Of a DNA stretch of 64,000 nucleotides, positions 5,224-61,300 are shown in pieces. Each line of letters opens with the position of its first letter. Within the stretch, counting starts at the first letter, position 1. The notes beneath the pieces were generated by a model, which was not told where the DNA came from, did not search any database, and saw nothing but the letters and a program-made list of their open reading frames with translations. A program made the position numbers and the translations under genes. Origin of the DNA: an uncultured Planctomycetia bacterium (GTDB lineage: Bacteria > Omnitrophota > Gorgyraeia > Gorgyraeales > Gorgyraeaceae); NCBI GenBank assembly GCA_964415355.1, contig CAYPYS010000001.1, forward strand, positions 215,399 through 279,398, written 5' to 3'.

Positions 5224-5248
5224 ACAGCCCTTTCGGTATAATAAGCAC

Positions 5249-27770: not shown

Positions 27771-28112
27771 TCAATTGGCTGCAAAAAGCCTTGACATGCC
27801 TTCGCCAAACTTAAGGCCAACGCCATCCTTCTCAACCCTTACAACCTCAGCCTCTCCTGTGAGTCGTGAAAAAGGAAAATCTCTTCTGTCGTCCTTAGGC
27901 ACTGATAAGTATATATTGAGCTTATCCTGGGGCTTGATATTCTTAATATCTATATTTATTACATATGCACCATGATAACTTAGGTTCAGAGTAAGCCCCT
28001 CTTGTGCCTCTCGCTTCTTATCGGCTGCGCCACGGTTAACGTTTACGGGAAGAGATAAATCTATCCTTTTAGACTGCCTCTTCTCCATAAAATCTCCAGC
28101 CCTCATCAACAC
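27771..28112 (-). CDS. PilZ domain protein (c-di-GMP binding)
   Basis: 113 aa. RQSKRIDLSLPVNV is an RxxxR-like motif. The ...TLNLSYHGAYV... beta-barrel and a downstream D.SxxG-like ...ISEGGV region follow. It is only 19 nt upstream of the SBP gene with no PIE between them. Confidence 0.6.
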   Translation of the reverse strand: MLMRAGDFMEKRQSKRIDLSLPVNVNRGAADKKREAQEGLTLNLSYHGAYVINIDIKNIKPQDKLNIYLSVPKDDRRDFPFSRLTGEAEVVRVEKDGVGLKFGEGMSRLFAAN

Positions 28113-28266: not shown

Positions 28267-28305
28267 TTAAGCATACACTTCAACATTGTTGAAGTGTATA
28301 CTTAA
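28267..28305. repeat. PIE copy 14, GCATAC/GTATAC variant (TTAAGCATACACTTCAACATTGTTGAAGTGTATACTTAA)
   Basis: Read directly. The giant-ORF stop TAA (28302-28304) lies in its right end. Confidence 0.9.
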
Positions 28306-37300: not shown

Positions 37301-40300
37301 TAGAGGCCTCAGTGAGAGAAATTGATGCTCTATCCACAGTAATTTTCTGAATTTCGCCATCAACTTCAAGATATAATCCGCGTACTGGCCCGTTTAGTTG
37401 CTCAGCGCTCCTGCTTCCCTCCTGAACAATGATTACATCTGCCTTAGCATGATAAAACATAGCTATGTTCAGAGCACCGATTGGGTAAACACCTATAATA
37501 GTCCCGGTGCTACTATTTCCGGCCTGCTGTTTCTGCTCAGTAAAATAACCGAACAACTCATTGCTACTAAGCATAACCCCAGTAATAAAGCCTTGGCCGA
37601 GCCCAAAGAAATCCCCACCAGCCACGGATGAGGTGATTCCCAGCGAAGCCCACCCGGGCCATATTGCTATTCTTAAAACCTGCATAAGTGCAAAAATTAC
37701 AAAAGCTATCCAAAGAATATGCTCAATGATCTTTAAAGCACTGTTAATCTTCTGAAGACGAATTATCCTTTGAGACCTCGGTAGAACTATAGCTCCTCCG
37801 TCTGGCATTTCAATCAATCTGGACTGCACTTCATTCCAAAATTCCTTATACACATAAGCCCCGAACCTGATTCTTGCAATGCTAAATACAAAGAAACACA
37901 ACCCCAACCCTTGTCCTAATTCGGATGAAAGACCAAAAAACCCTCCTGCTTCTCGCCCTAACAGCCTTAGAAAAACAAATTTTCCTATGATTATAAATAA
38001 GTCCGCTATATTCGTCCAACCTCCAAAACCAAAGGGGATATAGTCACGATTATATTTATATACAATTTCTTCCCAGAAATTTGAAAACCAACTGCCTAAC
38101 ATTAAACCAAATAAAGCTAGATAAAAATTTGAAAATAATCCAAAGATTTGACTCTGGATAGCAATTTTCCATATAAATACGCCTAAGGTTATAAATACTA
38201 GTGCTGCGCTTAAAAAAGTCCTTAAAGGATTTTCTAAACGTGGGGTTTTAATTCCCCAGTCTTTCTTATCTGCTATGTAGCCAGCTACCCTCGCTATCAG
38301 AAACCCGACCAAAACAGACATGCCAATAACAATAAGCGGTGGTGCAGTCTCCCATAAAAAGTAGTGTAACTTTTCAAGCATATCAAATCCTGTCCTTGAA
38401 GACAGGTTTAATCTTGAAATCAAGGACAGGTTGCCAGCTGAAATAGCAAATGGTACAAGCAACAAGGCGTTGTTTTTCTGTTTTAAACTAAAAAAGATAT
38501 AATAAAAAAGCGAGACTAACATACTGGTGGCCAAGATTAAACCCCATATCAGCAACGTAGAATCAGATTGTATGGCTACCCATGTAACAGCCCATCGATA
38601 ATATAACCAATACGTCACTAGCATAGGCCCGACTGTAAGTATTAGTGCTCGCGCCATAGTTTTGCCTCGATCAGGGAAGAAAGAATTCTCAGACCAAAAA
38701 GCTCGTCTAAGCGACTTCGCTGCTATGGCCGTAGGTATAAAAACTGCTATGATGAGCCAACCAGCCATGGGAAGAGACAATAAACCTCTATAAATTGCTA
38801 AGGTAAAAGCCGTCAAACTAAACACGACCAAGGTATGTTTCTTACGCTGCGTATTATTAAACCACGCTTCATCATGTTCGCACCATCCGCTATAAGCTTG
38901 AATTTTTTGTCCCGAAATTTGTAACCATCTCCATGAAATTGTCAACATAAGGACAATTATTGGCAAGACAAGGATAACTAGTAGGTCAAATTCTGACAAG
39001 CCATATACCGCGCCATACAAAATCGTACCGGTCCCGAGCATCAAGATAACCAGGATAAAGATCAATACAAAAGATCTCCAGCCTAAAGATATCCAGCGCG
39101 GGACCTTTGATGCGTATTGTTCGTAATCACTTCCAAACTTATCTTTTAAATAACTCTCTTCTTTTATCGACTCTTTTTTAACAGACGAGCTAGTTTGAAG
39201 CGCCACGAATAATCCTGATATTAACGCGATTATCCAGGTAAGGGTCTTAGCATCCATTGGATAGAATAGCGTTGCAATAATAGAGGTTATAAAGCTAGAG
39301 AAAATTATAACATAACTAATGTATATGGGATTTCTGGTCCATCTGTAAGGGCCTTTGGCAACAAGGGCATCGGGGTAAATTTCACAACGAGTAATGATAA
39401 GATGTGGATCTATATATAGGTGTGCGTAATTGAGGAAAATACAGCTGGCAACTAAAATGCTTGCCGGCCAAAGCAAGATAGGATCGATAAGACCTAGAAT
39501 AAAGGCAAAAATTACAGAAACAAGCAACTGTCTTTGTTCGCACTTAAGATACCGCCATAGACGTATAAGGGCATAAGCAGAAATACCTAAAATGACAGCA
39601 ATCAGTTTTATGTTCACCTCTGGCGGTGGCTGATTCTCGACAAAGTGCCGTAAATTTTCAAGGATATTGAGCTGACTAAATCTGTCATTGCGAGCAATGA
39701 CAGATGGAGACACCTTAGCAAACAAGGAAACGCCTAACATGAAGCTTGAATTATCCTGATCGGATATGAGGGTGATTGCCGCAAGATTTGCCAGAGGGTG
39801 AGAGGCAATAAGGCTATGCTGTATGCGCAATGGTTCAGGATCAGCTTTAATAAGTCCCAGCTTTATAGCTAGTTCTACAGTCTCAAGACGTTTTTGAAGT
39901 CTGATAGTAGGTTTCACAGCCCGTCCCAAATGAGATAGTCCTAGATGTTCTCTTGCATTACTAAAGGTTATGCTAACATTGGACTGCGGGATAGATATCC
40001 TCTTGGAAATCTCTTTATTTGTCAGCCCTTGAGCCATAAGGGTTAATATTTCTTTTTCCCTATCAGTAAGCTGAGACATCTTTACAAGCTTTTTAAGTGG
40101 CTCAGGATCAGCTTTAATAAGTCCCAGCTTTATAGCTTCTTCAACAGTCTCAAGACGTTTTTTAAGTCGTGCAAGCAAGTTTCCCCATCCCAAAGGAGAT
40201 AGCCCTAGATGTTCCCTAGCACTTCGATAGAGTGCATTAATATTTGGCACTGTAGTAGAAAGCTTCTCAGCGATCTCTTCAATTGTCAATCCTTGAGCCA

Positions 40301-43300
40301 TAAGAATCAATATCTCTTTTTCTCTATCAGTAAGCTGAGACATCTTTACAAGCTTTTTAAGTGGCTCTGGGTCAGCTTTAATAAGTCCCAGCTTTATAGC
40401 CCGATTAACAGTCTCAAGACGTTTTTTAAGTCGCGTAGCCAAACTCTTACCATGTCCCAAAAGAGGTAGTCCTAGATGTCCTCTGGCGCCTCGATAGCGT
40501 GCATTAATATTTGGCACTGTAGTAGAAAGTTTCTCAGCGATATCTTCGATTGTCAATCCTTGAGCCATAAGGATCAATACCTCTTTTTGCCTCTCACTTA
40601 GACGAGGTGTATTGATAAGCTCTCTAAGTGATTTAGGATCAGCTTCAATAAGTCCCAGTTTTATAGCCCGCTCTACAGTCTCAAGATATTTTCTAAGCTG
40701 CATAACCAAGGTCTTGCCACGTCCCAAAGGAGGCAATCCTAAATGTTTTCTGGCATTACTAAAGGTTATGCTAACATTGGACTGAGAAATAGAAAATTTC
40801 TCAGCGATCTCTTCGATTATCAGTCCTTGAGCCATAAGAATCAATATCTCTTTTTCTCTATCAGTAAGCTGAGACATCTTTGCAAGCTTTCTAAGTGGCT
40901 CAGGATCAGCTTTAATAAGTCCCAGCTTTATAGCCCGCTCCACAGTCTCAAGACGTTTTTTAAGCCTGATAACATGGCTCACGCTTTTTCCTAAATGAGA
41001 TAGCCCTAGATGTTCTCTGGCGCGTTGATAGTGTTCATGAATAGTGTCTATATTAATAGCGATTTCTTCAGCGATCCTTTTATTCGTCAGTCCTTGAGCC
41101 ATAAAAGTTAATACCTCTTTTTCCCTCTTACTTAGACGAGGTGTATTGATAAGCTCTCTAAGTGATTTAGGATCAGCTTCAATAAGTCCCAGTTTTATAG
41201 CCCGCTCTACAGTCTCAAGATATTTTCTAAGCTGCATAACCAAGGTCTTGCCACGTCCCAAAGGAGGCAATCCTAAATGTTTTCTGGCATTACTAAAGGT
41301 TATGCTAACATTGGACTGAGAAATAGAAAGTTTCTCAGCAATTTCTTTATTCCTCAGCCCTTGAGCCATAAGGGCTAATACCTCTTTTTCCCTGTCAGTA
41401 AGCTGAGACATCTTTACAAGCTTTCTAAGTGGTTCAGGGTCAGCTTTAATAAGTCCCAGCTTTATAGCTAGTTCTACAGTCTCAAGACGTTTTTTAAGCC
41501 TGGTAGCAGGTCTAACAGCTGGTCCCAAATGATCTAGCCCCAGATGTTTTCTGGCGTTTCCATAGATTACATGAATATTGGAAGAGGAAACAAGAGAGAA
41601 AGTCTTAGCAATCTCTTTATCTGTTAACCCTTGAGCCATAAGGATCAATACCTCTTTCTCTCTATCAGTAAGCTGAGACATCTTTACAAGCTTTCTAAGT
41701 GGTTCAGGGTCAGCTTCAATAAGTCCCAGCTTTATAGCCCGCTCTACAGTCTCAAGACGTTTTTTAAGTTGTACAAGCAAGTTCCCGCGTCCAAAATGAG
41801 TCCGCCCTAAAAGATGTTTGTGGGTATTCCGGAAGATTTGACCAACATTACCCTTGGTAATAGAAAGCTCTTTAGCGATCTCTTCATCCCTCAGCCCTTG
41901 AGCCATAAGGGTCAAGATCTCTTTTCTTCTTGGAGACAAGTAAGGTGGATTTATAATTTGCCTCAATAGCCTGACATCAGCATCAATCAATCCGCGCTCT
42001 ATGGCTTGGTTTAATCCATAATCAGTTGAATAGGCTCTGTCCAGGGCCTGCCTAAACGCGATATCTATATCCTGGGTATGTTCAAGGCCTGATCGCTGTA
42101 AGGCCTTTACCCATATGAGAAATGCGTACAAAAACTCTCCGCCTTTTAGTTCTTCAAATGCATCCGTAACATCCCCATAGCTTTGTCCTATAAGTCTGCC
42201 CTTCCACGCCTTCATCAAGTTAACTACATCTTCTTCCATCTCCTCTGTTTTTATTGAAAATATAATCGCATTCCTCAGCTTATTAATTAACTGATCACTC
42301 AATGCTTTCCAGCGCTGGCGCTTCATGTGCCAGAAATCATCCGAACAATCAAGAATCTCATCCCAGCCGTCAAACCTAACAAATGCCCTACAAAATAGCC
42401 TGAGAAGCGATTCTGTTTCAGTATCGGCGGAAAGAATTCCCTCAGGCACAGAACTTGAACTAACAACAAGATCCGCATATTGGTCGTGTCCGTCCATTGG
42501 CAGATCTTTAACTATCTGTTCCGGAAAGGCTACGGCCACCTTAAAGGCCTCCGGCATCTCTTCAAGAAGCCTGTCATAATATCCGCCTCCTCTTCCAAGG
42601 CGCTTCCCCTCCCTTGTGAACAGAAGCCCTGGGACAAGGATCAGGTCAGGGGCCCCACAAAACAACTCGCACGATTCTTTGGGCTGCAAAATGTCATACG
42701 GACCGGTCTCCAGATTTTCTCCAAGATTCTGTATTATACGAAATAGGAGAGCATGCGTTTCATCTTCTTTATCTACGCAGGGAAGGGCTACGGTTTTACC
42801 CTGTTCGAGAGCTTCTTCAATTAAGGGGACAATTTGTGGTTCAAGAGGCATAGGATAATACAGAAATACCACTTTTGTTTTCTCCCAGCGCTGCTGAAAC
42901 AACTGGTGTTCTTCCAAGGCTTTAAAAAGAGATTCGTTTCTTTGAATTGCTGCTCTTTTATCGAGCTTTCTTAAGCGCTTCTTCGCCATCGCCCTCAGCT
43001 GCTCTTTTTGCTCGTGAATATTAAGTTTCTTTCCTTTTTTAATAGCTATTACTACCGCTATGATTGCAAATGAAGAAACTGCCTGCGAGTGTAAGACGAA
43101 CTGCTTTAAAAAACGCAATGATATAAAGTCATAGAATTTCAGCAAAATAAATACAAAAATAATCCCCAATATTATACGAAAGATAAGATTCCTAATAGTA
43201 TTTCCTTGAGCAACCACTATATCGTCTTCCTGGTAACCTGCTTTCTTAAGATTTTCAACCGCTCGACCTTTTATCCTCTTCATTTCTCTTAAACCCAATG

Positions 43301-46300
43301 CGCTTTTGATGATAAGAGCCGCGCTCAAAATTAGAAATATTGAAAAAGCTATCGATATAAATAGAAATCTTCTATATATATCCTGAATAAAAACGGCCCG
43401 GGCAAGCCCAAAGAAATCCCCACCAGCCACGCCCCGTACGAAATCTCCGATTTGCGTACGGGGCACGGTTGAAGCGATCCCCAAAGTAGCCCACCCGGGC
43501 ACAAATACCTTTGTCATTGCGAGGCCAAAGAGCGCAGTGACTCTTGTAGAAGTTTTCTTATCCGCAATGAGGCCACCTTTAATATCTTTATAAGAGAAAG
43601 CAGCGGCAGCCGCCGCTACAACTCTATTTCCCACCTCAAGTTTCCTTAAAATAGATGACACATTATTCATGGCAGGCGCTCTTCCTTCTCCAATGCCTAA
43701 TACTTCTGTTATCTCCCTATTGCTTAGGCCTTTCATTACTAATTGCAAGACTTCTTTTTCTCTGCCGCTGAGTTCATCAAAACCTTTCTCGCGATAAAAA
43801 GCATCATCTAACCTTATCAGCCCTTTTCTAATGGCTATTACCACTGCTTCTATTTTATTTGCTGCTTGTAGTTTTTTAAGAATAGGCTTTCTGTGTTTTA
43901 ACCCAAATGACTTATATCCTAGAGCAAGCGCCATTTCCTTATCAGAAAGGCCTTGCGCAAGAAGCAAAAGAATTATTCCTTGAAACACTGTCAACCTTGT
44001 TTTAAAAATCTCTTCGGTCGCAATCGAAAGGTTCCCGACAGATATCGTCTCAGCTTGACTACTAGCTCTCCCATCTGAATCCACATGCCTGCTAACATCA
44101 GGGAGAAATAAAACCTCGGCTACGCTGCAAGAAATGCGGCATAAGAAACCAATGCCCAAAGGAGTCCTGATGTATTTCCATATATAAGAAAGAAGTTGCG
44201 TTAGTTCATCTATAGCCTCTTGACATGGATTTAAATAAAGCTCCTCAACCGAAATCGAACTGAGCCCATAGGCCTTTGTAGCGGCATTTTTAAACCGTTT
44301 TATGTTATCCAGAACTTTTTGCAATAATGAGCTTATGCACGCTAATTGCAGCGGCGACTCTTTTATCTCTGTTTCTATAAATAATAAACAATCTAATAAA
44401 CTATTTAAAAGTTCCTTTGTTTCCCATAGGGTTTTCTTTTTTAATGTCCTCCTTCCGCGCCCGGATCCATTCTCATCCACGAATTCAAATAAGGCATTGA
44501 TTTTTATTCTTGCGATTGAAAAAGCAGTAATGATCTTGGTAAAATGAGGCCCCGCGCTCCCAGGAATTCCCGAAATATCATATGCTTTTACCCAACCAGG
44601 CGCAGGAGACCTTAAAAACTCCTCTGTTGCGTCGATCCATTTTCTATAGTAATCAAAAGCAGCATCCTTCACCAGGTCTATAGAGCGTGACGATAGAGGA
44701 AAATCTTTTTCTGTCAATACATTGCCTCTTTTAAAGTATCTTATGCGGATCGCATCTTCGCCCCAATATAAATCAACCACCTTCTCCGAAGTAGGCAGCC
44801 AGACTAAGACAGCATATTTTGTCACCCCGCCTATAAATAAACGACGCAGAGCCAAACCTTCCCTTAAAATAACCTGGGCAGATCTGGCTTCTGAATCTTT
44901 CACCGTAGCCTTTGTGCTCAAGAAACGAATTTTAGCCCCATTAATCCATATGCTTCTATGTGTTTCGCCGATAAAAGTCTCTTCCAAAACTGCAGGATAT
45001 GCCCTATCTAAATCCATATCAAGAATCAGGCCAACAAGATAATCTTGCAGTTTCATGCTATATTTATACACAGGCACCTCTTCCTTAATACCAATAATGC
45101 CCATATCGCGGCCATCTACGATAACATGCCTTTTCCCATTTTTAAAAGGGAACTCTAGACTACAAACCAGCTCGCAAACATCTTCCTTATACGCAACAAT
45201 CTCAGCCGATACTAGCTGCTTTGCTCCTGCCTTTTTATATACAAGTTTCCAAATTACCTTAAACCTTTCCATTCCCGGAAGAGAAAGCATATTGGAAGGC
45301 GCGACCCTTAAACACAAGCCCTCTAAGCCCGCACGTCCTCTTGCATCAAGGTCAGCTTCCTGATAGCCGATTAACCCCTCTTCCAAAAGCGATGGCACGC
45401 TTGCGATAGCCGGAGCAAATGCCATTGAAGCCAAAAATGGAACTACATTTCCTCTTATAGCCTCCCAGAATACAATACACCCATAGACTAACAAAGACGT
45501 CATGAGTAAGAAAAGCACAAGAAATAGCCAGCCTCTATACTTAAGCTTGCTAATATAGGCCTTATAGGCCTTGCCTTCTGGTGTTTTATGCGCTCCTAAA
45601 AATAAAATAGCTATAAATTCCGGGTATAGCCTGCCCAATAACGACAATAAACCAAGCATGCTAAACCAGGCCACAGCTATTCCAGCTACCCCCCATGCTG
45701 CCTGAAGCGCCAGGGTATATGGTAAAATAAATATTGATATTAAAAACGTAAGGAAATAGCTTCCAACCCCCCAATATAAAACAGCAAATGCAAAATGTTC
45801 CAATCTCCCATGCCTAAACATACGAATTCCAAACGATATAATATAAAAAATTAAAATTGCAAGCAAAATCATAGTAAACCAAATTCCCGGTTTGTCAAAA
45901 AGCGCGATCAATTTATCTATATCCGGATCCGGCGGGCCGTTTTCCCATAGAGAATAACGCAGGATTTCCTGGATGCTGGAGAATGAAACCCACAATGCCG
46001 CCAGAGAAAAATTTAAATTCGAACCTGATGAGTCTTGCTTGCCAATGCGGTCGTCAACTGACGTAGTCAGTATTTCCAAACATTCATCTTTAAGCATAAG
46101 TTTGGTTAAAGATGGTATTATTTTCTCAAAATCGCTTATAATGCGATTTGCCGTATCTACCTGTTCATCTGTAGCTACTCTCTCTCCATCAAACTCCCAA
46201 TGCTCTACTCCCCATGACCAATATCTTAAGAATACCCAGAAGTATATAATGACAAAAATCGGCTGGATAGCAACACTGGGTTCATAGTCTGAAAATATAG

Positions 46301-49300
46301 GTATCCATATACCGTTAAAATGTGATTTCAATCTAAAATAATCTAAAGAACAAAAACTGCTTATTGTGCTGTGACTTCTGCTCCCACCCCTAACCCATTG
46401 CTCAAGAAGCCAATCAGCCCCGTCTTCCTGCGCTTCGACTGACAGATACACTCGTATTGGCTCATCCTTCCTATTTCTAAACTCTAACCCACATGCCATA
46501 TCTTTTTCTGCTTCTCTACTAAGATAGTTTTCGATTTGCTTTAAAGCTACATCGGAATCGCCAACAATACCAAGCTTTTCCTTTAGTGCGCGCATCAGAC
46601 CTCTTGCAACTATGGGTTCATATGAGTAAAAGAAAAGTTTTGCTACATGCGCCATGAACTCTGATTCTAAAGTTTCCTCAAAAATATCAAAAGGATAAAT
46701 TTGTAAACCTATCTCATCAAATACACGCGTCAATATGCCATTCTTGACTTCAGCAAAGCCTCTTTCGATCCTTATTTCTTTTCTACCCTGCCATAGTATT
46801 TGACCGGCTAAGAAAAAGCCACCATTTGGACCTGTTGCAGCATTCTCAATGACGCCGTCAGGATGTTCCTCTAATACTCGCCCGGGCATTACAAATGGAT
46901 ACGCTTTCACAAACCTGCCTTCTACGCGCCTTGCCAACCCATCCACTATCTCTATCTTCGCGCCTGACCATAAAGCATTCCTAGAATCAGGACCATTATG
47001 ATAAAGATGAGTGCCAACTGCGCCATATATATCGGTACACCTATAATCCTCGAATACTATAATGCCATTATTTACTTTTATATTATGGGCCCACGCCAGG
47101 GCGCCTACGCCCCCTCTTCCAGTTTTAACCTCATTATTCGAATCTGAAGAGATCCCTGTTATCACGCAATAGCCTTTTTTGCCATACCTATCGAGAAAAT
47201 CTCCTGGTACCATGCCTGGAAAGGCATTTATAAAAGTACCCTCTACCAGCTTCCCATCCTCTATTACCGCATCCACAAATAGCGCATTTTTTCCTTCTGG
47301 GCCAATATCGCGGATCAATTCTCCTGTTGCATTATAGACCTTTGTTACACGCCCTTCTTTATCATCTGAGTTTACCTTTTCTACTCGCAGCATTAGTCCT
47401 TCCTCATTCTCATGTCCTTTCCACTTATCCCACCATGGCTTTACTAAATAAAGGCCTCCTCTATTATTCAACTTTGCATCGAGCACCACACAATCAGGGT
47501 AACGTTCAAATAAATCTCCTGGCACACGAGGAGGAAACGTCCCTACAAAAGTACCTCCGACTAACTGACCGTCTACTATAGTGCCTCCATCATATATAGC
47601 ATTTATTCCTTCACCTCTGCGATAACTGCGGATATCTCCTTCGTCTCCTTCTAGCATTACCATCGATATAAACATTAAACAAAATTCCTGACTAGGCAAC
47701 AATCCTTGCGTCATTGTGAGTGCCGTAAAAATAATGCCCAAGAGCAAGGTGAGATTATTTTGGTCGAATTCAGGAGGTTTATTAAATAACGCCATGATTA
47801 CTATGGCGACAGAGGCTATTAGCAGAAATACATCTGCCAGGTTCGCCACATCAAAACCTAGAATAACTATCCAATTTACAACATAGCCTGTAGTTAATTT
47901 TTCTGTAATGTTACCCAAAGTGCCTCCTGCTAAGATACCGAGCATAGCTAGCATAAAAGGCCAGGCTTTTGTATTTTTCCAGTGCAAGAGAAACCATAGG
48001 ATAAGAGAGAACATTAGAGTAGTTAGAATAATAGTAAAAAATACATTCTCATTATCTTTTATAACTTGTATATGCGTAAGCTGAATAACTTGTCCAAATA
48101 ATGGTGTCTTAAGAAGGCTTTTAATGATATCTACATAAGAAAGCCCCTGCTCTGATAGCACATCAAGCTGTGCAGCCGTAAGTGCAACGGGAATATTCAA
48201 CTTAACCCACAGCTTAGTGCCAATATCTATCGCAAAGGCAAGGCATGCTGCAATAAACGCCATCAACCTGCGTCTATGCTGTTTAAGCCATGACCATAGA
48301 AATGGAAAGATAATAATAGGAGCTTGAGAAGCAAACCTTACGCTGGACCTGAACATCGCGATAGGGTTAAAATTTATACGTGAACTATGCAAGAAAACTA
48401 TTTCTCCTCCCACAGATTGATATAATATAAAACATCCTTTAAAGAATAAGGAAAACATGAGACTCAAAATCCCGCACCAAAAAATAAACTTCCATTGAAG
48501 CCCAGTATTTTCCATTCCTGATATATCCAAAGAATATGCCTGTCTGTCCAGTGCATCTGTAAACTGTGCCAGCATTCTAGAGCACTCTGAATATGACGCA
48601 GCCATACCAAACCAGCCCAATACAATTATGTAGATACCCTGCGCTGCCTGAATAGCTAAATTTTGCGGCAATATAAGGCTCGATACAAAATATACCGCTA
48701 AATAACTCAAAGCGCTTTCTAATAAAGTCACGATCAAGAATCGCCGGAGTGACCAGCCTTGCTTTGCCCCGCGAATCCCAGAGAATACAATATAAGTAAT
48801 TAAAGTTGCAAGTAAACCCATAGTAAACCAAACTTCTATGTTGTCAAAAAGTCTGAATTCATGCGCAACCGACAAACATTTTTCTAAGCTCCCACTTTGA
48901 CATTGTTGAAGCGCAAGCTTAATGTTATCAGATAAAAGCGCAACTGGTGCAAGAAATAGGCCATATAATGGAGCTTTCTCTTGTTTTCTTGCTGAAGCAC
49001 ACGAAAAAATTGGTCTGTCAAAGTATAATAAATACACCAGAAAAACAAAAAACCCTACTATTTCCCCGGATATCATGCCGATGAAATCCAAAGGATCTTT
49101 TACCCTGCCAGCTATCCCTCCTAGAAAGTCTTTTGACCTATAGAATTCTAACCATAAGAAAATAAAAATAAACACAACAAACAAACCTGCTAATTTTATA
49201 ACAAGCTGTAATAGCGGCCTGTTATTTTGTGAAGGCCTGTCAAAAAACAAATAACCCATTATAAAAACAATTCCAGTCAGGCCAATAGAAATCCCATAAT

Positions 49301-52300
49301 GACTCAGCCAGCCATATATTGGGTAATAATTAACGATCAATTTTAGCTCTTCTGAACCCTGGTGTCGGATAAAATTACCTATAAAGCCAATTGCCAACGA
49401 TATACAGAGGGCTATGGATAAATAAAATATGACACGCTTTTCTTCTGCATAGTTACTCTTTTGATAAAGCTTTCCGCGGATATAGATAACGAATCCTATG
49501 AACATTGCTAATCCTAACAACATCCAACCAACCGGAATCAACCCAGGATCACCGAATCTAGACTGCCAGAAGGCAAGACATGCAAAACCAGCTATAAGAA
49601 GCGCATCGACTATGCCGACTATGATCGTTACAATGCGGGATTTTTTTGAGAGGTGCAATAAGAGGAAACCAATGCCTACTACTGCGACTATTAAGAAGAA
49701 GAATCCAAGTAAAAGCGCCCAATCAGGCGGGCCATGTTGCCAGATAGAGTGATAGAAGATTTTGTGGATGCTGAATATGTCATTGCGAGTAAAGTGACGC
49801 AATCCCGTTGAGATTGCTTCGTCGCCCATAGCTCCTTGCAATGACATGCTTGTATCAACAATAGGTGCAGAGATAATAAGCAAGCCTTTGCCAGAAAAGC
49901 CACTAGGTTTGCCTGCATCCAAGGAATATACCGACATAATCCAGCACGCAAAGGCAACAAATACACCTCCGAGCATTGCTACTACATCCAATACATCATT
50001 ACTAAATACACCTTTTAGAAAAGGACCTACATCATATAGCTCATTAAGGGTGAATAAATAAATTACTCCCACAACACCTAAGCAACGCACTAACCACACA
50101 GCCCAATTATATAGTTTCAACTTCAACAAAAATCTACACAATACTTCAATAATTATAAAAAATAATATGGCGATAAAAATCGCTGAACCAAAATTAGGAA
50201 ACCAACCGTATATGGGTTTATAATGATCGATAATACCGATACAACCTAAGCCTTGAATCACGTCGCCTGCTAAGGTAATTATTAATCCTAGCATAATACC
50301 AAAAAGACTAAGCGTAATAGCATTGGCCATAATATATTTTTTATTTTTATACGAATCCTTGATAAACTCGTCGACGTAGACTATAAATTTAAACGATAAG
50401 GCCACACAAATTACGCCCATCGTTCCAACAAGAAAAAGTCCTGCATCAACTTTTATGCCTTGTACAAATATAAACGCGAACCCAATAACTAAAAGAGCTA
50501 CGTTTGTTATCCCGACTATCTTGGCCAAAGGGCTAAAGGTCTTCATAATAACGGGTAATTTTTCTTTGTCTCTTGATAGCACTTCATTAGAAATCCATAA
50601 TGCCGTCATAAAAAATAAAAGCATCAGGCCAAAATATATAAAAGTAGCTGTGTCCCTCTCCGCACAGCTAGAAACCAAAGCCACATTATCTGTATCCAAA
50701 TAAAACAAGCTTCCGGTGATCCATCCTGGCTGCGTCGCCATTGCAAACATCTTAAAGATTTCTGAAAATCCATATATCGAACCATACAAAAGCGTACCAG
50801 TCAGAATAGTCAAGCCAATAAAGATAGAGATCAATGCAAAAGACCGCCAGTGCAAAGATATCCAGGCTGGGACTTTAGAGTTATACTGGTCATAATCACT
50901 TCCAAATTCACCTTTTAAATAGTTTTCTTCTTTCGCTCCTTCTTTTTTAAATAACGAGCTTGCTTCAAGCATTCCGCATAACCCTGATATTAATGCTATT
51001 GTCCAGGCAAGAATCTTGTTAGCATCTATCAGATAGAATGCCCCTGCGGAAATAGATACTATATAGACAGAAAAGATTATAATGTAACTAATATATTTAG
51101 GATTTCTAGTCCATCTATAAGGACCTTTGGTGGCAAGTTTATTAGAGTAAATTTTATAATCAGTAAAGACAAAATGTTTATCTATATGCAGGCATGCCCA
51201 GTTGAGTAATATATAGCTAGTAATCAAAACGGCTGCTGGCAAAAGTAAAATAGGGTCAATAAAACCTACTGCAAAGGCAAAGGCTATGGAGATAATCAAC
51301 TGCCTCTGTTCGCACTTCAGATGCCGCCATAGCCGCATCAGTGCGTAAATAGAAAGAACTAAAAGTACAGCGATCAGTTTTGTGTTCGCCTCTGGCGGCG
51401 CCTGAGGCTGGACAAAGTTCCGCAAATTTTCAACGGATGGAGACACTTTGCCAAATAGACTCGTAATTGGTATAAGCATAAGCACATCGTCCCAGACATC
51501 ATCATCTGGATTCCGGCTATTATGTCCTCCGCTTGTCTCTAATTTTTTCAGGTACGCAAATGCGCTGCGCATCTGTTTTGGGGTAAATTTTATTGTGACA
51601 TCTAGATCTAATCCCCATACAGTCCGTCCCCTGCTCCAATCTTCTAAGTCGCGAAGTTCCCCATGAAGCTCTTTTCTTCGTAGTTCTGATATATATTTAA
51701 CAGCCTCTCTTATATCAGGAGAAAATATATTACGAAACATAGCAAGGCCCACAATAAAGAAAATAACGGGCCATAGATTTAAATTTGGCAGCCTTGTACC
51801 GTTTTGGAATCCGTGCGCAACCTGTCCCAAGCCCCCAACCGAAGCGAGCAAGGAAACGCCTAACATGAAGCCTGAATTATTCTGGCCGGATTTGTGATAT
51901 TGAATCAAAAGCCTGATCAAAGGAATGCTTAATAAAATAACGCTCAAAAGAAATATATCTGCCATATTTGTAGGATAAGGATCATTAATGATAGACCACA
52001 GCCACCAGTCTGTGACTGAGCCCTGAACGACAATTTCCGTTATATTGCCAAGAGCACCACCTATAGCTAATCCACCTATGATATGCCAAAACGCCTTATT
52101 TGTTATTTTTAAACTTATCCATATAGCTAAGATGCCGATCAACAAACCTCCGAATGCAGTAGAGATTTCTGAATTAGTTGCAACATGCAGATAATGCGTA
52201 ACTTGAATAGCGCCTTCAAGCAGTGATGTCTTTGGAAGGTTTTGTATAATATCTACCCTTGAAAGTCCGCTACTTACTAATTCATCTACCTGAATAGACG

Positions 52301-55300
52301 TCAATGCAACAGGAATATTCAGCTTCACCCACAGCTTAGTGCCTATATCTATTGCAAAGGCAAGGCATACTGAAATAAACATTATTAGCTTATGGTTTGG
52401 TTTTTTCAGTCGCGGCAATAGACGGACAAGGAGGAGTGCAAGAACTATCAAGGAAATAACAAAAAGAATAGTGACTGTCGTTATATGTAAGTCTAGAGGC
52501 GGTGCGTTAGGCTCGACAAATGCAATGACAGATGGAGATACCTTCAGGCCGGGTAAAGGCGCTCCATAATAAGGGGTCGTGGTCATTTTCAGGATACCCT
52601 CATAAGGCATAGATTCGTATTGTTCCATAAGGGAAAAAACTTCTTTTCTGAAGAGAGTGGAAAAATGATTCCTATAGAAACAAAAGCTCATGAAAGCGAT
52701 GCTTAAAACCATGATGAGTATATACTGCCACCCTGCCTTTTTAAGTTTCTGGGCAAAAAGCTTCAAAGAGGAAAATACCTTTCGTAGAGTGTTTTCACGG
52801 GAATAAAATGTCTCTGATTCCAATACTACGAGTAAATCTCTTTCTTTCATCCAATTAAAAATAGCATCGACCATTTCTTCGCCCTGACCGTACTCCCAAC
52901 TAATATTACATACTTCTATTATTGCTTTAAGAGTACGATAGAGCTTGCTCTCCGTAATATTGTTTAACTTACAACGTATATAAGCCCAACTAAACTCCTG
53001 GTCAAAATAAGATGATGCTATGATCTTCAATGTTTCTATCTCTATCGGCAGCAATCCCTCTAACAGCTCATGAGGGTAAAGTGATATCTCTAAATCCGGA
53101 TCCGAAATGTATGTACTAGCAGCCTTTAATATTATAAAACGTCTTTTTATCTCCTCTCTCTTCCCGCCGCCTTGATAAGCAGGTATCTCATGTCCCAGAT
53201 TTTTAAGGATATTCACGATCTCAGGAATATAATAAGTTCTTAACCCCGCCAACATTTTATCCACATCTTCGGTTACATCTTCCCCTCGTGATTTTCTCCA
53301 GTCGATAAAAACTTGCGCAACTTCTTTTCTGTCTATAAACTTTCCTAATTGCCGTAACAAGAATATCAGCTTCTCACTAAATACTTCCGGCAATACTTCC
53401 GGTAATACTTCCGGCTCCTCAGGCTCTCTAATCTCAGAATATGCTATGAAGCTTGCAGGATCCAATGATAAAGGAATTTTTTGCCCATTTTTTATTGTAA
53501 CTAAACCTCGCGCTATAATGACCAGTTGTTGATATTGCTCTCTGGGCCTGGGATATTCTTTTGCTTTTGAAAAATGAGGATTTCTAAGCAAACGCTCGAT
53601 TATCAGTTCTATTTTTCTATTCGAGATTTTTCCAATGCAAGTGCTGTTAGAGCCGTCCAGTGCATTTATAATCTGATGAAATTCAAGGATCCCACTCGCC
53701 ATGACTTTTAAAACATCCAATTGTTTAAAATCTATATTATGTTCCATCATTATTCTTAACTGAGGCGATATCTCCAGATATGGCATATAAAGCATTCTGA
53801 CGATCTCCAATATAGCAAGGCGCATATCAAGGCCGCGGCGGCTATCTCTAAGTCTGAAGATCTCGCCTTCCATCTGTCCTGATTCCTTTAGTTGTTCTAG
53901 CAAAGATCCTTTTAATTGGCTAATAGAATTTCTAATGGCACTTATTGTGCTAATAATTAAGAGGCGATCGATTTCTTCTGGTTTTTGTACTCTTATGCCA
54001 TCTGACCTCTGCTGCCATCGAATATATGAAATTGCAATTTCTGCTAAATTCTTTTGTTCTGCAAATTCTCTAATTAGAAATATCAGGCTATCTGAAAAAG
54101 GAATGCTTTCGCGCTCTAGCAGCATAGCAGAGTCTACGCCTTCTATCTTTCCGGCTTCTATAGCTGCTAGAACAGTTTCTTTGTGCACTCTACGAACTTC
54201 TGATGCCTCTAACGACCGCGGAGGAGGCACTTCCATCTTACGCCTTGCAGAATTATAGCAAACACGTACATTATTTTCACTTGTGCCCAATTTATGGGCA
54301 ATCTCCTTAGGCGACAATGCTTTAGCCAAAAGCTCTAATACTTCTTTTTCCCTAGGAGTCAGCCAATGAGTTTCTTTGCTTCTAGTATACTTAAAGAAAA
54401 AACCAAAACCTGATTTAAAAACGCGAATTCCAAATAATATAATAGAAAAAATTAAAATTGCAAGCAAACCCATAGTAAACCAAACTTCCGCGTTGTCAAA
54501 AAGTGCGAATTTAAAACTGCCTGATAATGCTGCAACCGGCGTAAGGACTAAACCATTTATATAACCTCTTCCATTATTGCTTCGTCTTGAGCTTCTGCTC
54601 TTCTCTTTTTCTGAAAGAGCCGAAAAGCCTTCTTTTTTCAGACGTGGCAAATATGCCAGAATATCAAAGAGAGCTATCATCTGTCCACACACCATGCCAA
54701 TAAAATCTAACGGATCCCTGATTGTTCCGAAAAACTGTGTCAGAAAATCCTCTGGCCTAAGAAATTCTACCCAGTAGAAAAACGCCATAAACCCAAAGAA
54801 TAAAGTGATGAATCCTAAGGAAGCTAACCATGGCAAACGCCAGCGTAGCGAAAGGCTACGTAAAACTAAATATCCTATCAAAAAAGAAGGACCAGTCCTG
54901 GCAATAGCAAGTCCATAGTGATTCAGCCAACCATATATTGGATAATAATGGATGATCGACCTTTCTTTACCCAAAACTTGTATAAAATCACCAAGATGGC
55001 CGATTGCAAATCCTAGAAAAAGGCATATAAACGAATAATATAAAACAGACATATTGTTGCTGAATTTATTCACTGTGTATCTAGCTGTCTTTGCGTATAT
55101 ATAAGTAGTAAATCCAGCACCTGATGCTGTGCCTGCCAATATCCATGCAATCTGTTCTAATCCTGGGTTGCCGAGTTGTACCTGCCAAAAAGCAAGGCCA
55201 GCAAAACCAGCTATAAGAAGCGCATCGACTATGCCGACTATGATCGTTACAAGGCGGGATTTCTTTGAGAGGTGTAACAAAAGAAGGCCAAGGCCTACTA

Positions 55301-58300
55301 CTGCGGCTATTAAGAAGAAGAATCCGAGTAATATGACTATATCCGGCGGGCCATGCTGCCATAGAGAATAACGCAATATCTTCTGGATGCTGGATATGTC
55401 ATTGCGAGCAATGACAGGCTGGGATAAGAAACCTGTAGCTGGAGCAAGAAAGAGAGGCGCGACATTGGAAAACATATTCTTATTTCTTTCTTTTTTAAAT
55501 CTCCTTCTATCTCGACGCAGAGATATTTCTAAAAATATTCTGTAACCGATGATTACAGGTATGAACAAAAACAATATGTCGAATATGTTAAAGAAAAAAT
55601 ACGGCGTGCCGCCGTTGTTCATGTATACAAAATAAACAAATTGTGCAAATATCTGGCCGGAGGGCAAAAATACCATAACCTGACTATAGATAATGCCTAT
55701 TGCGAACGGCAGTGCTATTTTATAGAGCATGAATAGTCTATTTATCCTTCGATCTCTTTCGATTGTATCTTTATATATATGCATTTTAGTGACTTTTACT
55801 ATAATATATAATGCGATGCAAAATTTTAATGGCATAAAATCATTTTTGTTATAGAAATGAACTAAATGCAGGCCTTTTATATTTAACGGAAACGGAATAG
55901 ATCCACTCATAAAATACCGGTCTATGCCTATAAGAACAAGCGTCATAATAACGATCTTTGCAAGGGTCAGCATAGATGATCTATTGGTTATATAATCCTT
56001 TATTTTTTCCCAAGATGTGGATCTACTAAATGCACTTTCAGCTTCAGCAAGGATTGAAGGATCAAGGCGCCTGGTCCCGGGCACAGGCCATTCGTATTTC
56101 TGATGATAGATCAACCTGTCATTTCCATCGCGTCTCTCTATCACTAAACATCCTGGCTCGCCACGCACGTCGATTCTATTTCCTCTCGCAGTTACTAAAG
56201 TAACTCCATCGACTATGCTGCCTATTACTCTCTTTTCTGCTACTTCCAGGCCTTCGGCATTTATTGTCTGGTTTGCGCCTATGAATAGATCCTTTTCCAT
56301 GCTAACAATTTCTTCTTTCGGGAGAATTTCTATAAATAAATCGTAAAAACGCGGCCTTAATAAAAATCCTTCTCTTGAGCGCTCAGTAGCGATATCAAAG
56401 ATCTTTATGCGGCTATTCTTGCCTTCGGGTATATAGATCGGGGCTTCGCAAGTCTCAAACCTTGCTCTATTATCATATTTCATCCTGTATTGAGCTGTCA
56501 TTTGTAATTCCTCTGCTTCAGCATGATTTTTCATTCTGCTATAACGATCGAGTCGCACGATCAAAAACTCTTGTTTTTCTGACTCAAAAACTACTGTACC
56601 GAATCCCTCCGGTAAAACGCAATAACCTAACGGAATATTCCCTGAATTATTCGGTAACCTGGGTTTCCATCCAGGCATAATAAGCTTTAAGATCCTCCGC
56701 GCCTCTAAAGCGGCCTGAAAAGTTTCCTCTCTCGTAAGTGCAGCTTTAAGCCTATTCCTTACTTCATCAATTGCCTCCCGGTCATTACCTAGCCATTTGC
56801 TTGCTGCATAAAGGATATCCCGGTCAAGCGCGCCTATTAATTTAAATGAAACATTGCTATCAAAAGTATACGCTATTAGATCTTGAAGAGCCGGGCTGTC
56901 TAACAATAGCTCCACTGCTGAGATTTCTCCTGGCTCATTTGCTGGATGCCACTCGTCGCCTATATAATAACCATCTGGCTTGCCCTCAATAACCAGGCTT
57001 TGTCCGTTGGAATAAAGCGTAACGTTAATAATGCCGCGGCCTATACGCACTCGCTCGCCTATCGCAAAAGGAAGCCCATTGCGCGCCAATCTCCATCCAT
57101 TACCAAAAGATAAGCTCTTAGGAGTCTCATATAAATGTACCTCTTTATCAGCAAAGAATTCACTAAGAACAGGGAAATCACCTGAGCAGGCCATTTTGAA
57201 CAAAGGAATGCATCTGGTCCCGGCGTTAGGATGCAATATCCCATCTGTCATGTGGGCAAAACCTTGCTCTGTAAAAGTCAATTCATAAGACTGCTGCGTA
57301 TCTGTACGGTAAAAGATTAAATCCCTGCCTGTCCAGCTTTTGAATATGCGTATATGATACCTATGGTAACTGCCTAAATAAATATCTGCATCTTTTAAGG
57401 TAATTTCCCCTGAAGAATGGTAACTTTGCTCGATCCACCAATCAGCCAAAGGAGTATCTACCGCCCAAGAAACCGGCTTTAACCTGTCCTCTGATTCATA
57501 TCCTGACAAATTATAGCCAACCGAAAAAACGCCTGCCTCTATTGACCAGCGGTTTATCATTAATATATCAACATTCTTCCTGCCACTGTTAATTATAATA
57601 ATATCCAGCATATTAGGCGTAACTGCTATATTTACATTTGTTATGTCACTAGGTGTCCTTAGGCTTACAGATCTACCGCCCAAAGAGGTATCCAAGTTAA
57701 TATCTTTCCCTCTTTCTAACCTTAAGATATAAGGACCTTTGTTTCCTCTCAAGTTTTTATCCGTAACCTCCAGTTCATTTAAAATCGATTGGCTCATTAC
57801 ATCTTCATCGAAACAACCATCTTCGATTATCAGAGAGGCAATCCCGCCCGTGTCTCTATCAAGGATGATTATAAGTTCTTTGTTATTCTGCCTTCCTCTA
57901 AGAATCTGAAGATTACGGCCCTCTAAGCATATTTTTCTGTCAGGTTGCTCCCAGATAATCTCTTCACCTAAAAGCTGATGGGCTAATATGGGATATTCCG
58001 CCTCCACACTAGTTGCTAGACATGCATTCGAGGCCATCAGGAGCTCAGGCGTCTCTTCAATGGCGCGACTAAAATCTATAGCAAACGGGATATACTGAGA
58101 ATAAGCAAGGCTTGCTTCTAATAAACGCTCTATGATTTCCTCGCTCGCATATGTAGCTGTCATATCCATAGCGATATGATCCGTCCAGCCAGCCATCATC
58201 AAAAGTTTCATGCGTCTGGCCAAAGCATATACTATTTCTTTTAATCGATCCTCACTTACTACAAGCCCTCGAAGCGCATTAGGTAGGCATCTTGAAACAG

Positions 58301-61300
58301 CCATATGCAACCGATCATCTTCTATCAAATCCCTGCCATCGCCGTTCCAGAATGCAAGCACCAGCTGGAATTTATCGCGCACTGCTTTTATCTCTTCTAA
58401 AGATATTTTGTCTCTATTTCTAGCGTGTATTCTTCTATCTATTGCTTCTACATCGCTTCTTCTATGATCCTCACCTAACATATAAATAAATATTCTCATT
58501 TCATGTGGAGTCAAAAGCTCTTCGAGACATTGTACGAATAGTTCGCCATCTTGTTTAGCAATAAGAATTTCTTCTGTGGGTCGATGACGAGGCGCGCCAA
58601 GCCATTCATGCGAATCTCCATCGCTCTCGTATACAGAAGGCGCATCAAGAGAAAAATACTGCCCCAGACTTATCACAGCTAGGGCCTGTTTCCAATCTTC
58701 TGCCTGCAACGTAAGGCTTTCCAGTTCTTGTAGTATTTCTTCATAAGCAGCATCAGGGCCTAATCTAAAAATAGCGTCTCTTAATATACCTAATACATGT
58801 CTGCCTCTTTCCCTGAAAGGGCAACGTTGAGGCTCGATAAACATACCTTCTCGGAACAAAACATAACCCACGATCGGCAATAAGCCGCCTTCTCTCCCTG
58901 CCAATATCTGCACGCCTCTTATCCCCCCGGAAAATTCTATAGGTTCTATTATTACTTCGTTACCAGCCAATTCAGTACTCACATGAACTTTTATAGCTCT
59001 GCCGTTTATCTTATATAGGTATATCGTTCCATCCGCGCCAACCCTTTTGGTTTTTCTGGTAGGGGCTTTATCGCCATTGATCTGAAACAGCACAAATTCA
59101 GACTGCCATTTGCTTTTTACCTGGATATTAAGGCCTTTATGTTCAATATAAGTTACGAAAGGTGTATTTCTATGCTCTTCTCTTTCATAAATACGAACGC
59201 TTTGTCTTATCTTATTTGCATCTATTTCCTCATTCATCAGAGTATCTTTATCATAAAAGCAAAAATCCTTGAGAGGAAAAACTGGCTCATCATGCTCATC
59301 TACTACCCAGTAACGCAAGAAATGCTGCATTTTACCTCCGACTCGCAGGACAAATGGCTCTTCATATGCCCTTTCAAGCCCATTATGTACGTGGAGATTA
59401 AGACGTCTGCCTTTAAAACCAGGCAACTCTCTTTCACCTGCAATTAAATCTACAGGCTGACTTTTCGGCATGGCCTTTCCTGTTAAGAACCAATATATCA
59501 ATTGATAATCTCTCATTGCCAATGGCCCTTTGAGCCCATCAGCCACAAATGGAATCTTTTCATTCCTCATATTAAATCGCCTGCGGCTCGCTCTCGCTTC
59601 TCCAGCAGTTAAAAACCTATCATTAGAATAAAGGACATAGCTGACAAAAGGAAATTCAGTCTCTGTGCCTTCTTCTCTGACCCAGTATATTACCCCTCGC
59701 TCGCCGTTTCCAAAGTCTGCTGCCTGACGATATGTATCTGGTAAAGACGGGTGGATAGGACACTGCACGCGAGTTCCGCTTAAAGTATATAAATACTCTT
59801 CACCGTCTCTATAAAATTTGGTTACTTCCTGTTTTCCAATAGGCCTATCTTCTCCTGTTTCAACAAAATATGATAATTCTGCTATATCCTTTCGGCTGCT
59901 ACTAAACCGCGGCCTTGCCTCAGCAACTGATTCTCCGGTCCCATCCATCACGATGCATGCGAACCAGGCTGCCTGCAAGGCAAACTGGCTCAAAAAACGC
60001 AATGATACATAGTTATAAACTTTCAGTAAAATAATCACAAAAATAATACCTAATATTATACGAATGACGAGATCTCTGGTGGTATTTGCGTGGGCTATCA
60101 GTATATCTTCTGCTTCGTAACCTGCTTTTTTAAGTTTATCTGCCGCTCTATCTTTTATCTGCTTCATCTCTATTAAGCCAGATATGCTTTTGACTATAAG
60201 ACGCACAGCTAAAATTAGAAATATTGCAGAAGCTATAGATATAAGCAGGAAGAATCCGAGCAAGACTACTATATCCGGCGGGCCATTCTGCCAGATAGAG
60301 TGATGGAGGAAGTCCTGGATATTAAGCTGAGCAAAGATGTCATTGCGAACAAGCGCATCCTTTGTCATTGCGAAACCAAAAGCAGAAGCAATACCAGCTC
60401 TCATCACAGTGCTCTTTGGAAATTCCAAAGCCTGCCTGAGTTCACTAAACTTATCACCTATAGCAACAACTATATGGTCACCTGCTTTGATATGATTCAG
60501 ACGCCTCTTTAAGCATGCTCTTACTCCGGTCTCTCTTATAAAACCCCAATCTCGTGCTAACTCTTCTAGGGTTCTATCTCTTTTCTGCGCGGCATGCGCT
60601 TCTTCTATTGCCCAGTCTAATATTGCCAGTGGCACAGCATGCATCCACTCATCCAAAAGGCCGCAGACTCCTTCAGGAAGTTCGTCAGAATCCTCAAGCG
60701 CTTCTCTTTCTTTTATGAATTCTTCTCTTATAAGTTCATACCAGTCCAGCCATTCACAAAATAATACTGTGTCTTCTTTGATTTCAGAAAGCATTTGAAC
60801 TTTATAGGGATCTTCCATTTGGTCAACCACTCTAAATAAAACCCGCAATATAAGACGCGTTCTTGTATCAACTTCTATGAGTCCCCATTCTACGGCTCGA
60901 TTCACAGTCCTGAGGCGTTCTACGAGAGCTTTAATGCGATCCAAGCGCTTGGTTATACGAGATAGACCTAAAGCTTCTCTAATATCGTTGTATGCTTGGC
61001 TAACAAATTTATGAGAAGAATAAGAAAGCCCCTCAGCTATTTCGTTATTCGTCAATCCTAGAATTATAAAAGTCAATATCTTATCTTGTGCACAAGTAAT
61101 ACGCGGAGTCTCTATAAGTTCTACAAGCGGCGTAGTGTCAACTTTTGGAATACGTTTTAGCTTTATAGCTATATTCACGGCCTTAAGGCGTTCTTCTAGA
61201 TCGGTAATGTAATCTGGGCGTTCTGTTATACGAGACAGACCTAATCGCTCTCTGGCATCGTTGTAGAATTCACTGACAGTTTTTTCAGAAATACCAAATC

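Follow-up and report, generated by a model that had tools for sequence, protein, structure and literature searches.

The stretch of DNA considered here, 64,000 nucleotides long and referred to throughout as the window, comes from an uncultured bacterium of the Omnitrophota lineage (GenBank assembly GCA_964415355.1, contig CAYPYS010000001.1, positions 215,399 to 279,398 of the forward strand). It carries the 3′ part of a gene for a giant protein in which modules resembling two families of membrane enzymes are embedded, namely, the signal peptidase LspA (peptidase family A8) and the ICMT/PEMT methyltransferases. The open reading frame (ORF) occupies 28302..64000 of the window on the minus strand, the strand of every module and domain described below, and comprises the C-terminal 11,871 or more codons of the gene. 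The upstream end lies beyond the window edge: as listed, the ORF spans 28302-63917 (11,871 codons), and because the 83 nucleotides from its first in-window start codon to the edge contain no in-frame stop, it extends further upstream. On a near-identical JGI metagenome contig of 173 kb (3300009128|Ga0118727_1000073), found through a neighbouring solute-binding-protein gene, the product is called as 28,837 amino acids (aa). What is visible here is thus the C-terminal 41% of the protein (~11.9k residues), the other ~17k residues being N-terminal. That contig differs from the window by 3 mismatches in 21,332 compared bases and three other assemblies by 1-3 mismatches, the comparison covering window 16420-37751 (the gene's downstream 9.4 kb and flank), downstream of all the modules discussed below. 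Stop-codon recoding was ruled out as the cause of the length of the ORF, which contains none of the three stop codons.

An earlier note on this DNA, made from its letters alone, had placed two LspA-like and two ICMT/PEMT-like modules, duplicated within one protein, in the interval 47790-52400. This interval lies entirely within the giant ORF and contains both of the LspA-like modules and one of the ICMT-like ones; the second ICMT-like module sits ~8 kb outside it, at 38961-39731. The modules do belong to a single chain, but that chain is the C-terminal part of the 28,837-aa ORF, and a third LspA-like module in it had been missed. As their sequences indicate, the modules are members of the two superfamilies but not orthodox ones, and as far as the literature searched shows, the residue-level state of LspA-like and ICMT-like modules in a giant protein has no earlier description. 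Residue numbers given for modules are those of the in-window ORF, and nucleotide coordinates are those of the window.

The LspA-like modules

The antibiotics globomycin and myxovirescin target LspA, which is essential, and the ~120 members of the family collected in this analysis are without exception small standalone enzymes with a very rigid signature. Self-BLAST and profile scans locate three LspA-like modules in the visible part of the giant protein, two complete and one partial. M1 (51891-52409, aa 3837-4009; AIDIGTK, GGALGNITE-I, VTDW, TNMAD) and M2 (47763-48290, aa 5210-5385; AIDIGTK, GGTLGNITE-K, VVNW, ANLAD) belong to the interval singled out earlier, and the partial M3 (37941-38444, aa 8492-8659; GSWFSNFWE-E, NRDY, TNIAD) lies outside it. 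Every motif that the earlier note had quoted, for these and for the ICMT-like modules, is present on the minus strand. All three copies exceed the gathering cut-off of 25 bits for Pfam Peptidase_A8 (PF01252), with 33.1 bits for M1, 37.1 for M2, and 29.0 for M3, the last over positions 57-136 of the hidden Markov model (HMM), that is, the C-terminal half of the fold only. In the reciprocal direction, a profile of the three modules searched against 5.8 billion sequences retrieved only standalone PF01252 proteins of 139-187 aa (best E 4.6e-6). A profile built exclusively from 18 canonical LspA proteins scores M1 at 15.5, M2 at 26.2, and M3 at 10.8 bits; M1 further aligns to the PDB entries 5dir, 6ryo, and 9emz, and M2 to 6ryo at E 0.001.

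Structure prediction lends tentative, model-based support to an LspA-like fold of M1. An AlphaFold 2 (AF2) model computed from a 21-sequence alignment has four long helices, with a predicted local distance difference test score (pLDDT) of 68.6 and a predicted template modelling score (pTM) of 0.60; its cradle region is poorly defined and partly helical (pLDDT 42-45). The only Foldseek matches of this model above a probability of 0.25 are the LspA structures 6RYO, 5DIR, and 6RYP (0.80-0.93), and they are weak in other respects (E 0.19-0.39, TM-score 0.35-0.41).

Fourteen residues are highly conserved in Staphylococcus aureus LspA, among them the catalytic dyad of D118 in the VxD motif and D136 in the NxAD motif (PMC6952399), which in the Bacillus subtilis enzyme is D111/D129 (PMC8767453). 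Besides the dyad, the S. aureus list holds D21, K25, N52, G54, G102, N106, D109, R110, V116, F132, N133, and A135. The alignments to PDB chains, to the 18 canonical proteins, and to the canonical-only HMM all agree on how these residues map onto the modules. The dyad Asp of NxAD is kept throughout (NMAD, NLAD, and NIAD in M1, M2, and M3), and that of VxD is kept in M1 (VTD) and M3 (NRD) and replaced by Asn in M2 (VVN). At GNxxD-R, the site of D109 and R110, the copies read GNITE-I, GNITE-K, and SNFWE-E; all three thus carry Glu at D109, and R110 has become Ile, Lys, or Glu. The DxxxK motif of the first transmembrane (TM) helix, TM1, is kept in M1 and M2 and not alignable in M3, where FDMLEK was tried as a candidate and is probably spurious, as it sits within a junction cassette described further below. 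The beta-cradle motif NxGxAFG is absent from M1 and M2 and not alignable in M3, which lacks that part of the fold. N52 and G54 are missing from the modules, F132 has become Thr or Ala, and the cradle region is remodelled by a ~25-aa insertion. With the dyad counted, M1 retains 9, M2 8, and M3 5 of the 14 residues.

The Glu that replaces Asp in GNITE had been pointed out in the earlier note as a substitution at a signature position. The observation stands: 119 of 120 canonical LspA matches read D-R at GNxxDR and none has Glu, and because Glu is common to all three copies and occurs in none of the 120, it represents a real, shared derived state. Its reading as a catalytic change does not stand, since the Asp concerned (D109 in S. 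aureus, D102 in B. subtilis in our numbering) is conserved but lies outside the catalytic dyad, and the substitution that does hit the dyad, the Asn of M2 at a position occupied by Asp in 119 of the 120 canonical matches, had gone unnoticed, as had the loss of the adjacent Arg from every copy and of NxG from M1 and M2. The alignment to curated LspA proposed as a check of the catalytic residues accordingly has a mixed outcome, with the dyad kept in M1 and M3 but altered in M2. Because the Arg, a substrate-contacting residue, is lost in all three copies, the Asp has changed to Glu, and NxG is missing from M1 and M2, none of them would be an orthodox prolipoprotein signal peptidase.

Set beside LspA proper (MEROPS A8; 5DIR, 6RYO, 6RYP), the modules have in common the DxxxK of TM1, the GGxxGN helix, the VxD and NxAD dyad loops (M1 and M3), and a PF01252 score above threshold. 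They differ in that the canonical enzyme is a standalone protein of 140-190 aa, whereas here three copies are embedded in a protein of 28.8k aa, and in the residues just described: GNxxE followed by I, K, or E, no NxGxAFG, no Phe before NxAD, Asn in the dyad of M2, and half a fold in M3.

The ICMT/PEMT-like modules

Members of the ICMT/PEMT family act on prenyl-cysteine, phospholipids, and small thiols. ICMT/PEMT-like module 1 (50727-51464, aa 4152-4397, family core aa 4207-4386; KGPYRWTRNPKY, EENYLKGEFGSDYDQYNSKVPAWI) lies inside the interval singled out earlier, separated from M1 by a linker (51465..51890, aa 4010-4151) that consists of one TM segment and a ~115-aa charged soluble stretch for which no family match was found; module 2 spans aa 8063-8319. 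Both fall marginally short of the Pfam PEMT and ICMT cut-offs of 25 and 24 bits (24.6 and 20.7 for module 1, 18.1 and 17.2 for module 2). Against a profile of 36 standalone family members they score 56.2 and 66.5 bits, respectively, and this 36-member set in turn matches the ICMT structures 4A2N and 5V7P at 1e-15 to 1e-12. A reciprocal search of 5.8e9 sequences with a profile of the ICMT-like modules retrieved only PF04140/PF04191 proteins (best E 3.7e-7). The AF2 model of module 1 (pLDDT 75.1, pTM 0.58) gave no specific match in Foldseek. The family assignments of both module types rest on sequence profiles.

The modules carry the family signature G-x-Y-x-x-x-R-[HN]-P-x-Y followed by EE-x-x-L-x-x-x-F-G-x-x-Y, with the invariant G, Y, R, P, EE, and Y all present. 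The EExYLxxxFG stretch noted earlier does form their C-terminal tail and corresponds to the family consensus. It had also been proposed that RWTRNP(I/K)Y represents a substitution of the family's RHPxY, and this part does not survive comparison with the wider family. The Asn of RNP occurs in 47 of 61 word-indexed family matches and in 5 of 26 motif-bearing matches from an unbiased search, and it is nearly invariant in the alignment of the 36 standalone relatives. A genome-collection scan with the ICMT-like pair matched four distant standalone ORFs in all, and two of these four, from reference genomes of Rhizobiales and Acidobacteriota, read KGPYRWTRNP[ML]Y. Judged from these sequences, RWTRNPxY is no module-specific substitution but the consensus shared by a common bacterial subfamily of standalone proteins.

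The features that are specific to the modules lie elsewhere, in extra flanking helices and in two insertions (12 and 5 aa) that follow the RNPxY helix and precede the EE motif. With standalone proteins of 150-190 aa the modules share 27-34% identity. Their closest parallel is the bacterial 'methyltransferase family protein / Ste14' group (PF04140/PF04191; 4A2N, 5V7P; AtTam46 8XKU), with which they share GPYRWTRNPxY, EExYLxxxFGxxYxxYxxxVPRW, and cytoplasmic motif loops, and from which they differ in being embedded in a giant protein, in the insertions and extra helices, and in scoring under the curated cut-offs. As a separate observation, the TM helix right after each ICMT-like module (aa 4357-4385 and 8280-8308; window ~50763-50849 and 38994-39080) weakly resembles the outer helix of NaK-type channels (there termed M1; E ~0.2 against the PDB), a likeness that is probably due to chance because no selectivity-filter motif follows the helix.

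Duplication, membrane placement, and function

Identity between the two complete LspA-like modules is 43-48%, the value varying with the stretch compared, and that between the two ICMT-like modules is ~59-60%. Nei-Gojobori estimates give a synonymous divergence (dS) of 1.34 and a ratio of nonsynonymous to synonymous divergence (dN/dS) of 0.37 for M1 and M2, and 0.74 and 0.35, respectively, for the ICMT-like pair. A third kind of module behaves similarly, with a dN/dS of 0.41 by the same method. It is polytopic, ~300-350 aa long, and was identified by self-BLAST and motif census in three copies (48738-49790, 49818-50720, and 54393-55409), two of which lie between ICMT-like module 1 and M2 (aa 4400-4700 and aa 4710-5060). 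Its recurrent motifs are YPIYGW, DPLDFIGM, and (F)DNxEVWFTMG, and it has no Pfam or NCBIfam match; the idea that it is a degenerate LspA was rejected, the canonical profile scoring 2.5 bits at FDNAEVWFTMG and hhalign giving a probability of 0.2%. With dS at 0.7-1.3 and dN/dS at 0.35-0.41, the module paralogues are old duplicates under purifying selection, and the earlier proposal of a diverged but selected state, as opposed to decay, is borne out. The TM1 'head' of M1 and M2 departs from this pattern (aa 3849-3876 vs 5223-5250; window 52241-52352 vs 48119-48230, minus strand): it is 86% identical and its dS is low, at 0.43, which may reflect gene conversion confined to this stretch or a far stronger constraint.

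When aa 3825-4400, which span M1 and ICMT-like module 1, were searched with phmmer against 1.84 billion representative proteins, 36 matches were returned at E <= 1e-3. The sole strong one, P0237 (3,925 aa), is a fragment of the giant protein itself, whose C-terminal part it matches without difference, so that the match reports the internal paralogue. The other 35 comprise 34 on the ICMT-like part, of standalone size (115-414 aa), and one on the LspA-like part (P0245, 154 aa), so that no orthologue of the modules was found among the 1.84 billion proteins. Two metagenome-contig scans with the LspA-like alignments were empty, and a word-indexed search with the segment spanning M1 and ICMT-like module 1 returned nothing at E <= 1e-3. 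The absence of module orthologues agrees with a published description of long Omnitrophota proteins, the overwhelming majority of which are reported as sequence singletons (10.64898/2026.06.07.730766).

The placement of the modules in the membrane was judged heuristically, from hydropathy and a count of Lys and Arg in loops under the positive-inside rule. By this charge heuristic, the N and C termini of M1 and M2 would lie inside and the VxD and NxAD loops, which contain no Lys or Arg, outside, a predicted arrangement that matches LspA in its four helices, its inside termini, and its outside dyad loops. The GPYRWTRNP and EE...FG...Y loops of the ICMT-like modules are rich in Lys and Arg and would lie inside. 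The predicted topologies of M1 and ICMT-like module 1 are mutually consistent, as the two are separated by a single TM helix. We infer that the outer face carries the LspA-type dyad site and that the methyltransferase motifs are exposed to the cytoplasm. The topology check that had been proposed, namely, whether the active sites face the same side, therefore comes out as a prediction of opposite faces, and this placement argues against a coupled pathway.

The gene encodes a giant inner-membrane multi-enzyme protein. Through ancient internal duplications it contains three peptidase-A8 modules and two from the ICMT/PEMT superfamily, which are surrounded by unrelated enzyme domains of cytoplasmic type and by arrays of LuxR-type helix-turn-helix (HTH) units. 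We consider it probable that the diverged LspA-fold and ICMT/PEMT modules serve as independent tethered activities, with M1, M3, and the ICMT-like modules probably active. The ICMT-like modules, which keep every family-invariant residue of the bacterial 'RNP' subfamily and for that reason are likely active, would most likely be membrane methyltransferases dependent on S-adenosylmethionine, with a cofactor site facing the cytoplasm. M1 and M3 would probably still hydrolyze peptide bonds at the outer membrane surface on a changed substrate, because the Asp-Asp dyad, GN, and NxAD are kept, together with the TM1 DxxxK in M1, and M2, with its dyad Asp changed to Asn, would most likely be a non-catalytic copy with a substrate-binding or structural role. 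The two module types, predicted on opposite membrane faces, would then act independently and form no two-step pathway.

Several observations weigh against this assignment of activities. The NCBIfam equivalog model TIGR00077 (cut-off 73.95 bits) gives M1 23.3 and M2 27.1 bits and does not match M3, which means that the LspA-like modules are rejected, by that sequence model, as functional equivalents of LspA; likewise, the isoprenylcysteine O-methyltransferase equivalog NF040696 gives the ICMT-like modules 20.6 and 20.2 bits at a cut-off of 160. The topology of M3 is ambiguous, with an internally inconsistent charge pattern, and topology predictions are reported to be unreliable for Omnitrophota giant proteins (10.1101/2023.11.21.568195). 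Moreover, the loss of the Arg, the change of Asp to Glu, and the missing NxG fit equally well with LspA-like scaffolds that are all inactive, and scaffolding by all LspA-like copies is the main rival to an active M1 and M3. According to this possible, though on balance unlikely, alternative, the LspA-like modules, and possibly the ICMT-like ones too, have lost catalysis and persist as four- or five-helix bundles that anchor the protein or bind helices. The Asn at the dyad of M2, the loss of the Arg in all copies and of NxG in M1 and M2, the low number of conserved residues retained (9, 8, and 5 out of 14), the half-fold of M3, scores far under the equivalog cut-offs, and the lack of an evident lipobox substrate all speak for it. 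However, a mere anchor would not be expected to retain DxxxK, GN, VxD, and NxAD across paralogues that are 25-43% identical and evolve at a dN/dS of ~0.37, nor does loss of catalysis sit well with ICMT-like modules in which every invariant family residue is kept.

The LspA-like modules could instead be processing peptidases that cut the giant polypeptide, in cis or between copies, at juxtamembrane junctions on the outer face, so that the product would be a polyprotein. This explanation draws on the dyad kept in two copies alongside altered substrate-contact residues, and on a junction cassette that recurs at at least nine places within window ~38300-62700 (aa 395, 1190-1213, 2837-2857, 3793-3806, 4158-4174, 4710-4730, 5991, 8069-8097, and 8522). 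The cassette has the form (FMLGVSLFA / AISTGL)-(KVSPSV)-ARNDxF-amphipathic stretch-W..GPPD or PPPE; five instances were inspected by eye, and in each a TM helix comes next, with a loop rich in K/R after it. This pattern points to a processing site or to a conserved element for re-entry from outside to inside, and the prediction puts the conserved part of the cassette on the outer face, where the dyad is predicted too. The proposal has also been made that peptidase domains within giant proteins cleave them, though no cleavage sites are known (10.1101/2023.11.21.568195). The cassette has no Cys or lipobox, however, and could be a plain stop-transfer or insertion element; the phmmer search and the metagenome-contig scans turned up no related giant protein with which to compare it, and we regard processing as distinctly unlikely. 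More doubtful still is its fuller form, in which the LspA fold would have been repurposed as built-in maturation peptidases acting at the junction cassettes, with M2 as a non-cutting, helix-binding partner. Even so, dyad-bearing peptidase modules beside a conserved junction cassette provide a testable hypothesis on how the giant proteins found in ultra-small, putatively predatory bacteria might be cleaved.

The proposal put forward in the earlier note, a built-in lipid or lipoprotein tailoring pathway in which one lipid-modified Cys substrate is handled in turn by a protease of LspA type and a methyltransferase of ICMT/PEMT type, appears highly improbable. It is true that no more than ~250 residues separate each ICMT-like module from an LspA-like one (M1 then ICMT-like 1; ICMT-like 2 then M3), and textbook eukaryotic CaaX processing likewise combines a membrane protease (Rce1 or Ste24) with an ICMT-family methyltransferase. 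Yet the CaaX protease has another fold, and both CaaX enzymes work at the cytosolic face on a C-terminal prenyl-Cys, whereas opposite faces are predicted here. The chemistry is also mismatched: cleavage by LspA creates a new N-terminus that bears the lipid-Cys, and the carboxyl group methylated by ICMT is that of a lipid-Cys at the C-terminus. The visible protein has 5 lipobox tetrapeptides, against 1.8 expected from composition, and none of them stands in a signal-peptide context. The order of the modules is reversed between the two LspA/ICMT pairs, self-BLAST reveals no en-bloc duplication of the pairs, M2 has no ICMT partner, and the RNP motif is normal for its subfamily; by our estimate, adjacency is not significant given the clustering of TM-rich zones.

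An artefact, be it chance similarity between hydrophobic helices or an ORF that is an assembly chimera, carries next to no weight. The sub-threshold ICMT/PEMT Pfam scores and the weak fold searches could be cited for it, but it is contradicted by the three Peptidase_A8 matches above the gathering score, by reciprocal searches that return the two families exclusively, by ICMT-subfamily profile scores of 56-66 bits, by four independent assemblies with <=3 mismatches over window 16420-37751, and by 35.6 kb free of stops. As sequence comparisons go, the module matches are well beyond chance, and the motif matches on which the earlier note relied are not coincidental.

A fold that is triplicated in a giant protein, with the dyad in two copies and with the Arg and the cradle motif gone, amounts to a natural experiment in the re-tooling of LspA. 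Signal-peptidase-II content has been listed once before, in a 147,155-aa Omnitrophota protein (10.64898/2026.06.07.730766), and because enzyme fusion is moreover typical of giant proteins, the finding refines rather than changes the existing picture.

The giant protein and its surroundings

The remainder of the visible part is a mosaic of unrelated Pfam domains interspersed with 78 hydrophobic TM-like segments in ~11.9k residues. Many of the domains are GerE/LuxR-type HTH units; the others are a 5-formyltetrahydrofolate cyclo-ligase (42462-43007, 127 bits), a PIG-L-type deacetylase (35181-35642, 46 bits), an ISN1-type inosine monophosphate 5′-nucleotidase (33771-34565, 173 bits), and a GNAT fragment. 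The cyclo-ligase, PIG-L, and ISN1 domains are ordinary cytoplasmic enzyme domains that happen to be embedded in a giant protein. Eight HTH units form an array with a period of 88-90 aa (39768-42020, aa 7300-8050), and at least four more copies occur outside it (aa 750-990, 3185-3232, and 6715-6770); DNA-binding HTH repeats inside a giant membrane protein with many TM helices are an odd pairing. Near the C-terminus lie about ten tandem 31-aa repeats (HIAQII.S.RSE.EIL.LI..L...GI.E; 29430-30419, aa ~11186-11496) that have no family match.

In overall build, the protein resembles the giant proteins described from other Omnitrophota, the 'Archaeovorin' type (10.1101/2023.11.21.568195) and the 'multi-enzyme metabolic cluster' (10.64898/2026.06.07.730766), with which it shares a length above 20 kaa, dozens of TM helices, tiling by unrelated enzyme Pfam domains, internal repeats, and the absence of close relatives. 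It differs from them in being unusually rich in LuxR-type HTH repeats. A divergent SecA DEAD-like domain is present in most giant proteins of this type, and a Pfam scan of the visible C-terminal 11.9k residues detected no SecA-DEAD, HEAT, GT, or C39 domain.

The genes downstream (window 871-28106) all lie on the minus strand like the giant ORF. They comprise a PilZ gene (27771-28106), a ROK gene, GH2-like genes, a carbohydrate ABC importer composed of a solute-binding protein and two permeases, a TolC/HlyD/two-RND efflux set, a type II secretion system (T2SS) F gene with a pseudopilin, and YchF. T2SS-like and carbohydrate-import genes have been reported around Omnitrophota giant genes (10.1101/2023.11.21.568195), and both kinds occur here. 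Rfam and tRNA scans revealed no tRNA or Rfam RNA in the 64-kb window. Part of the window sequence also occurs in sample SAMN10231904, from a marine oxygen-deficient water column (PMC12220078).

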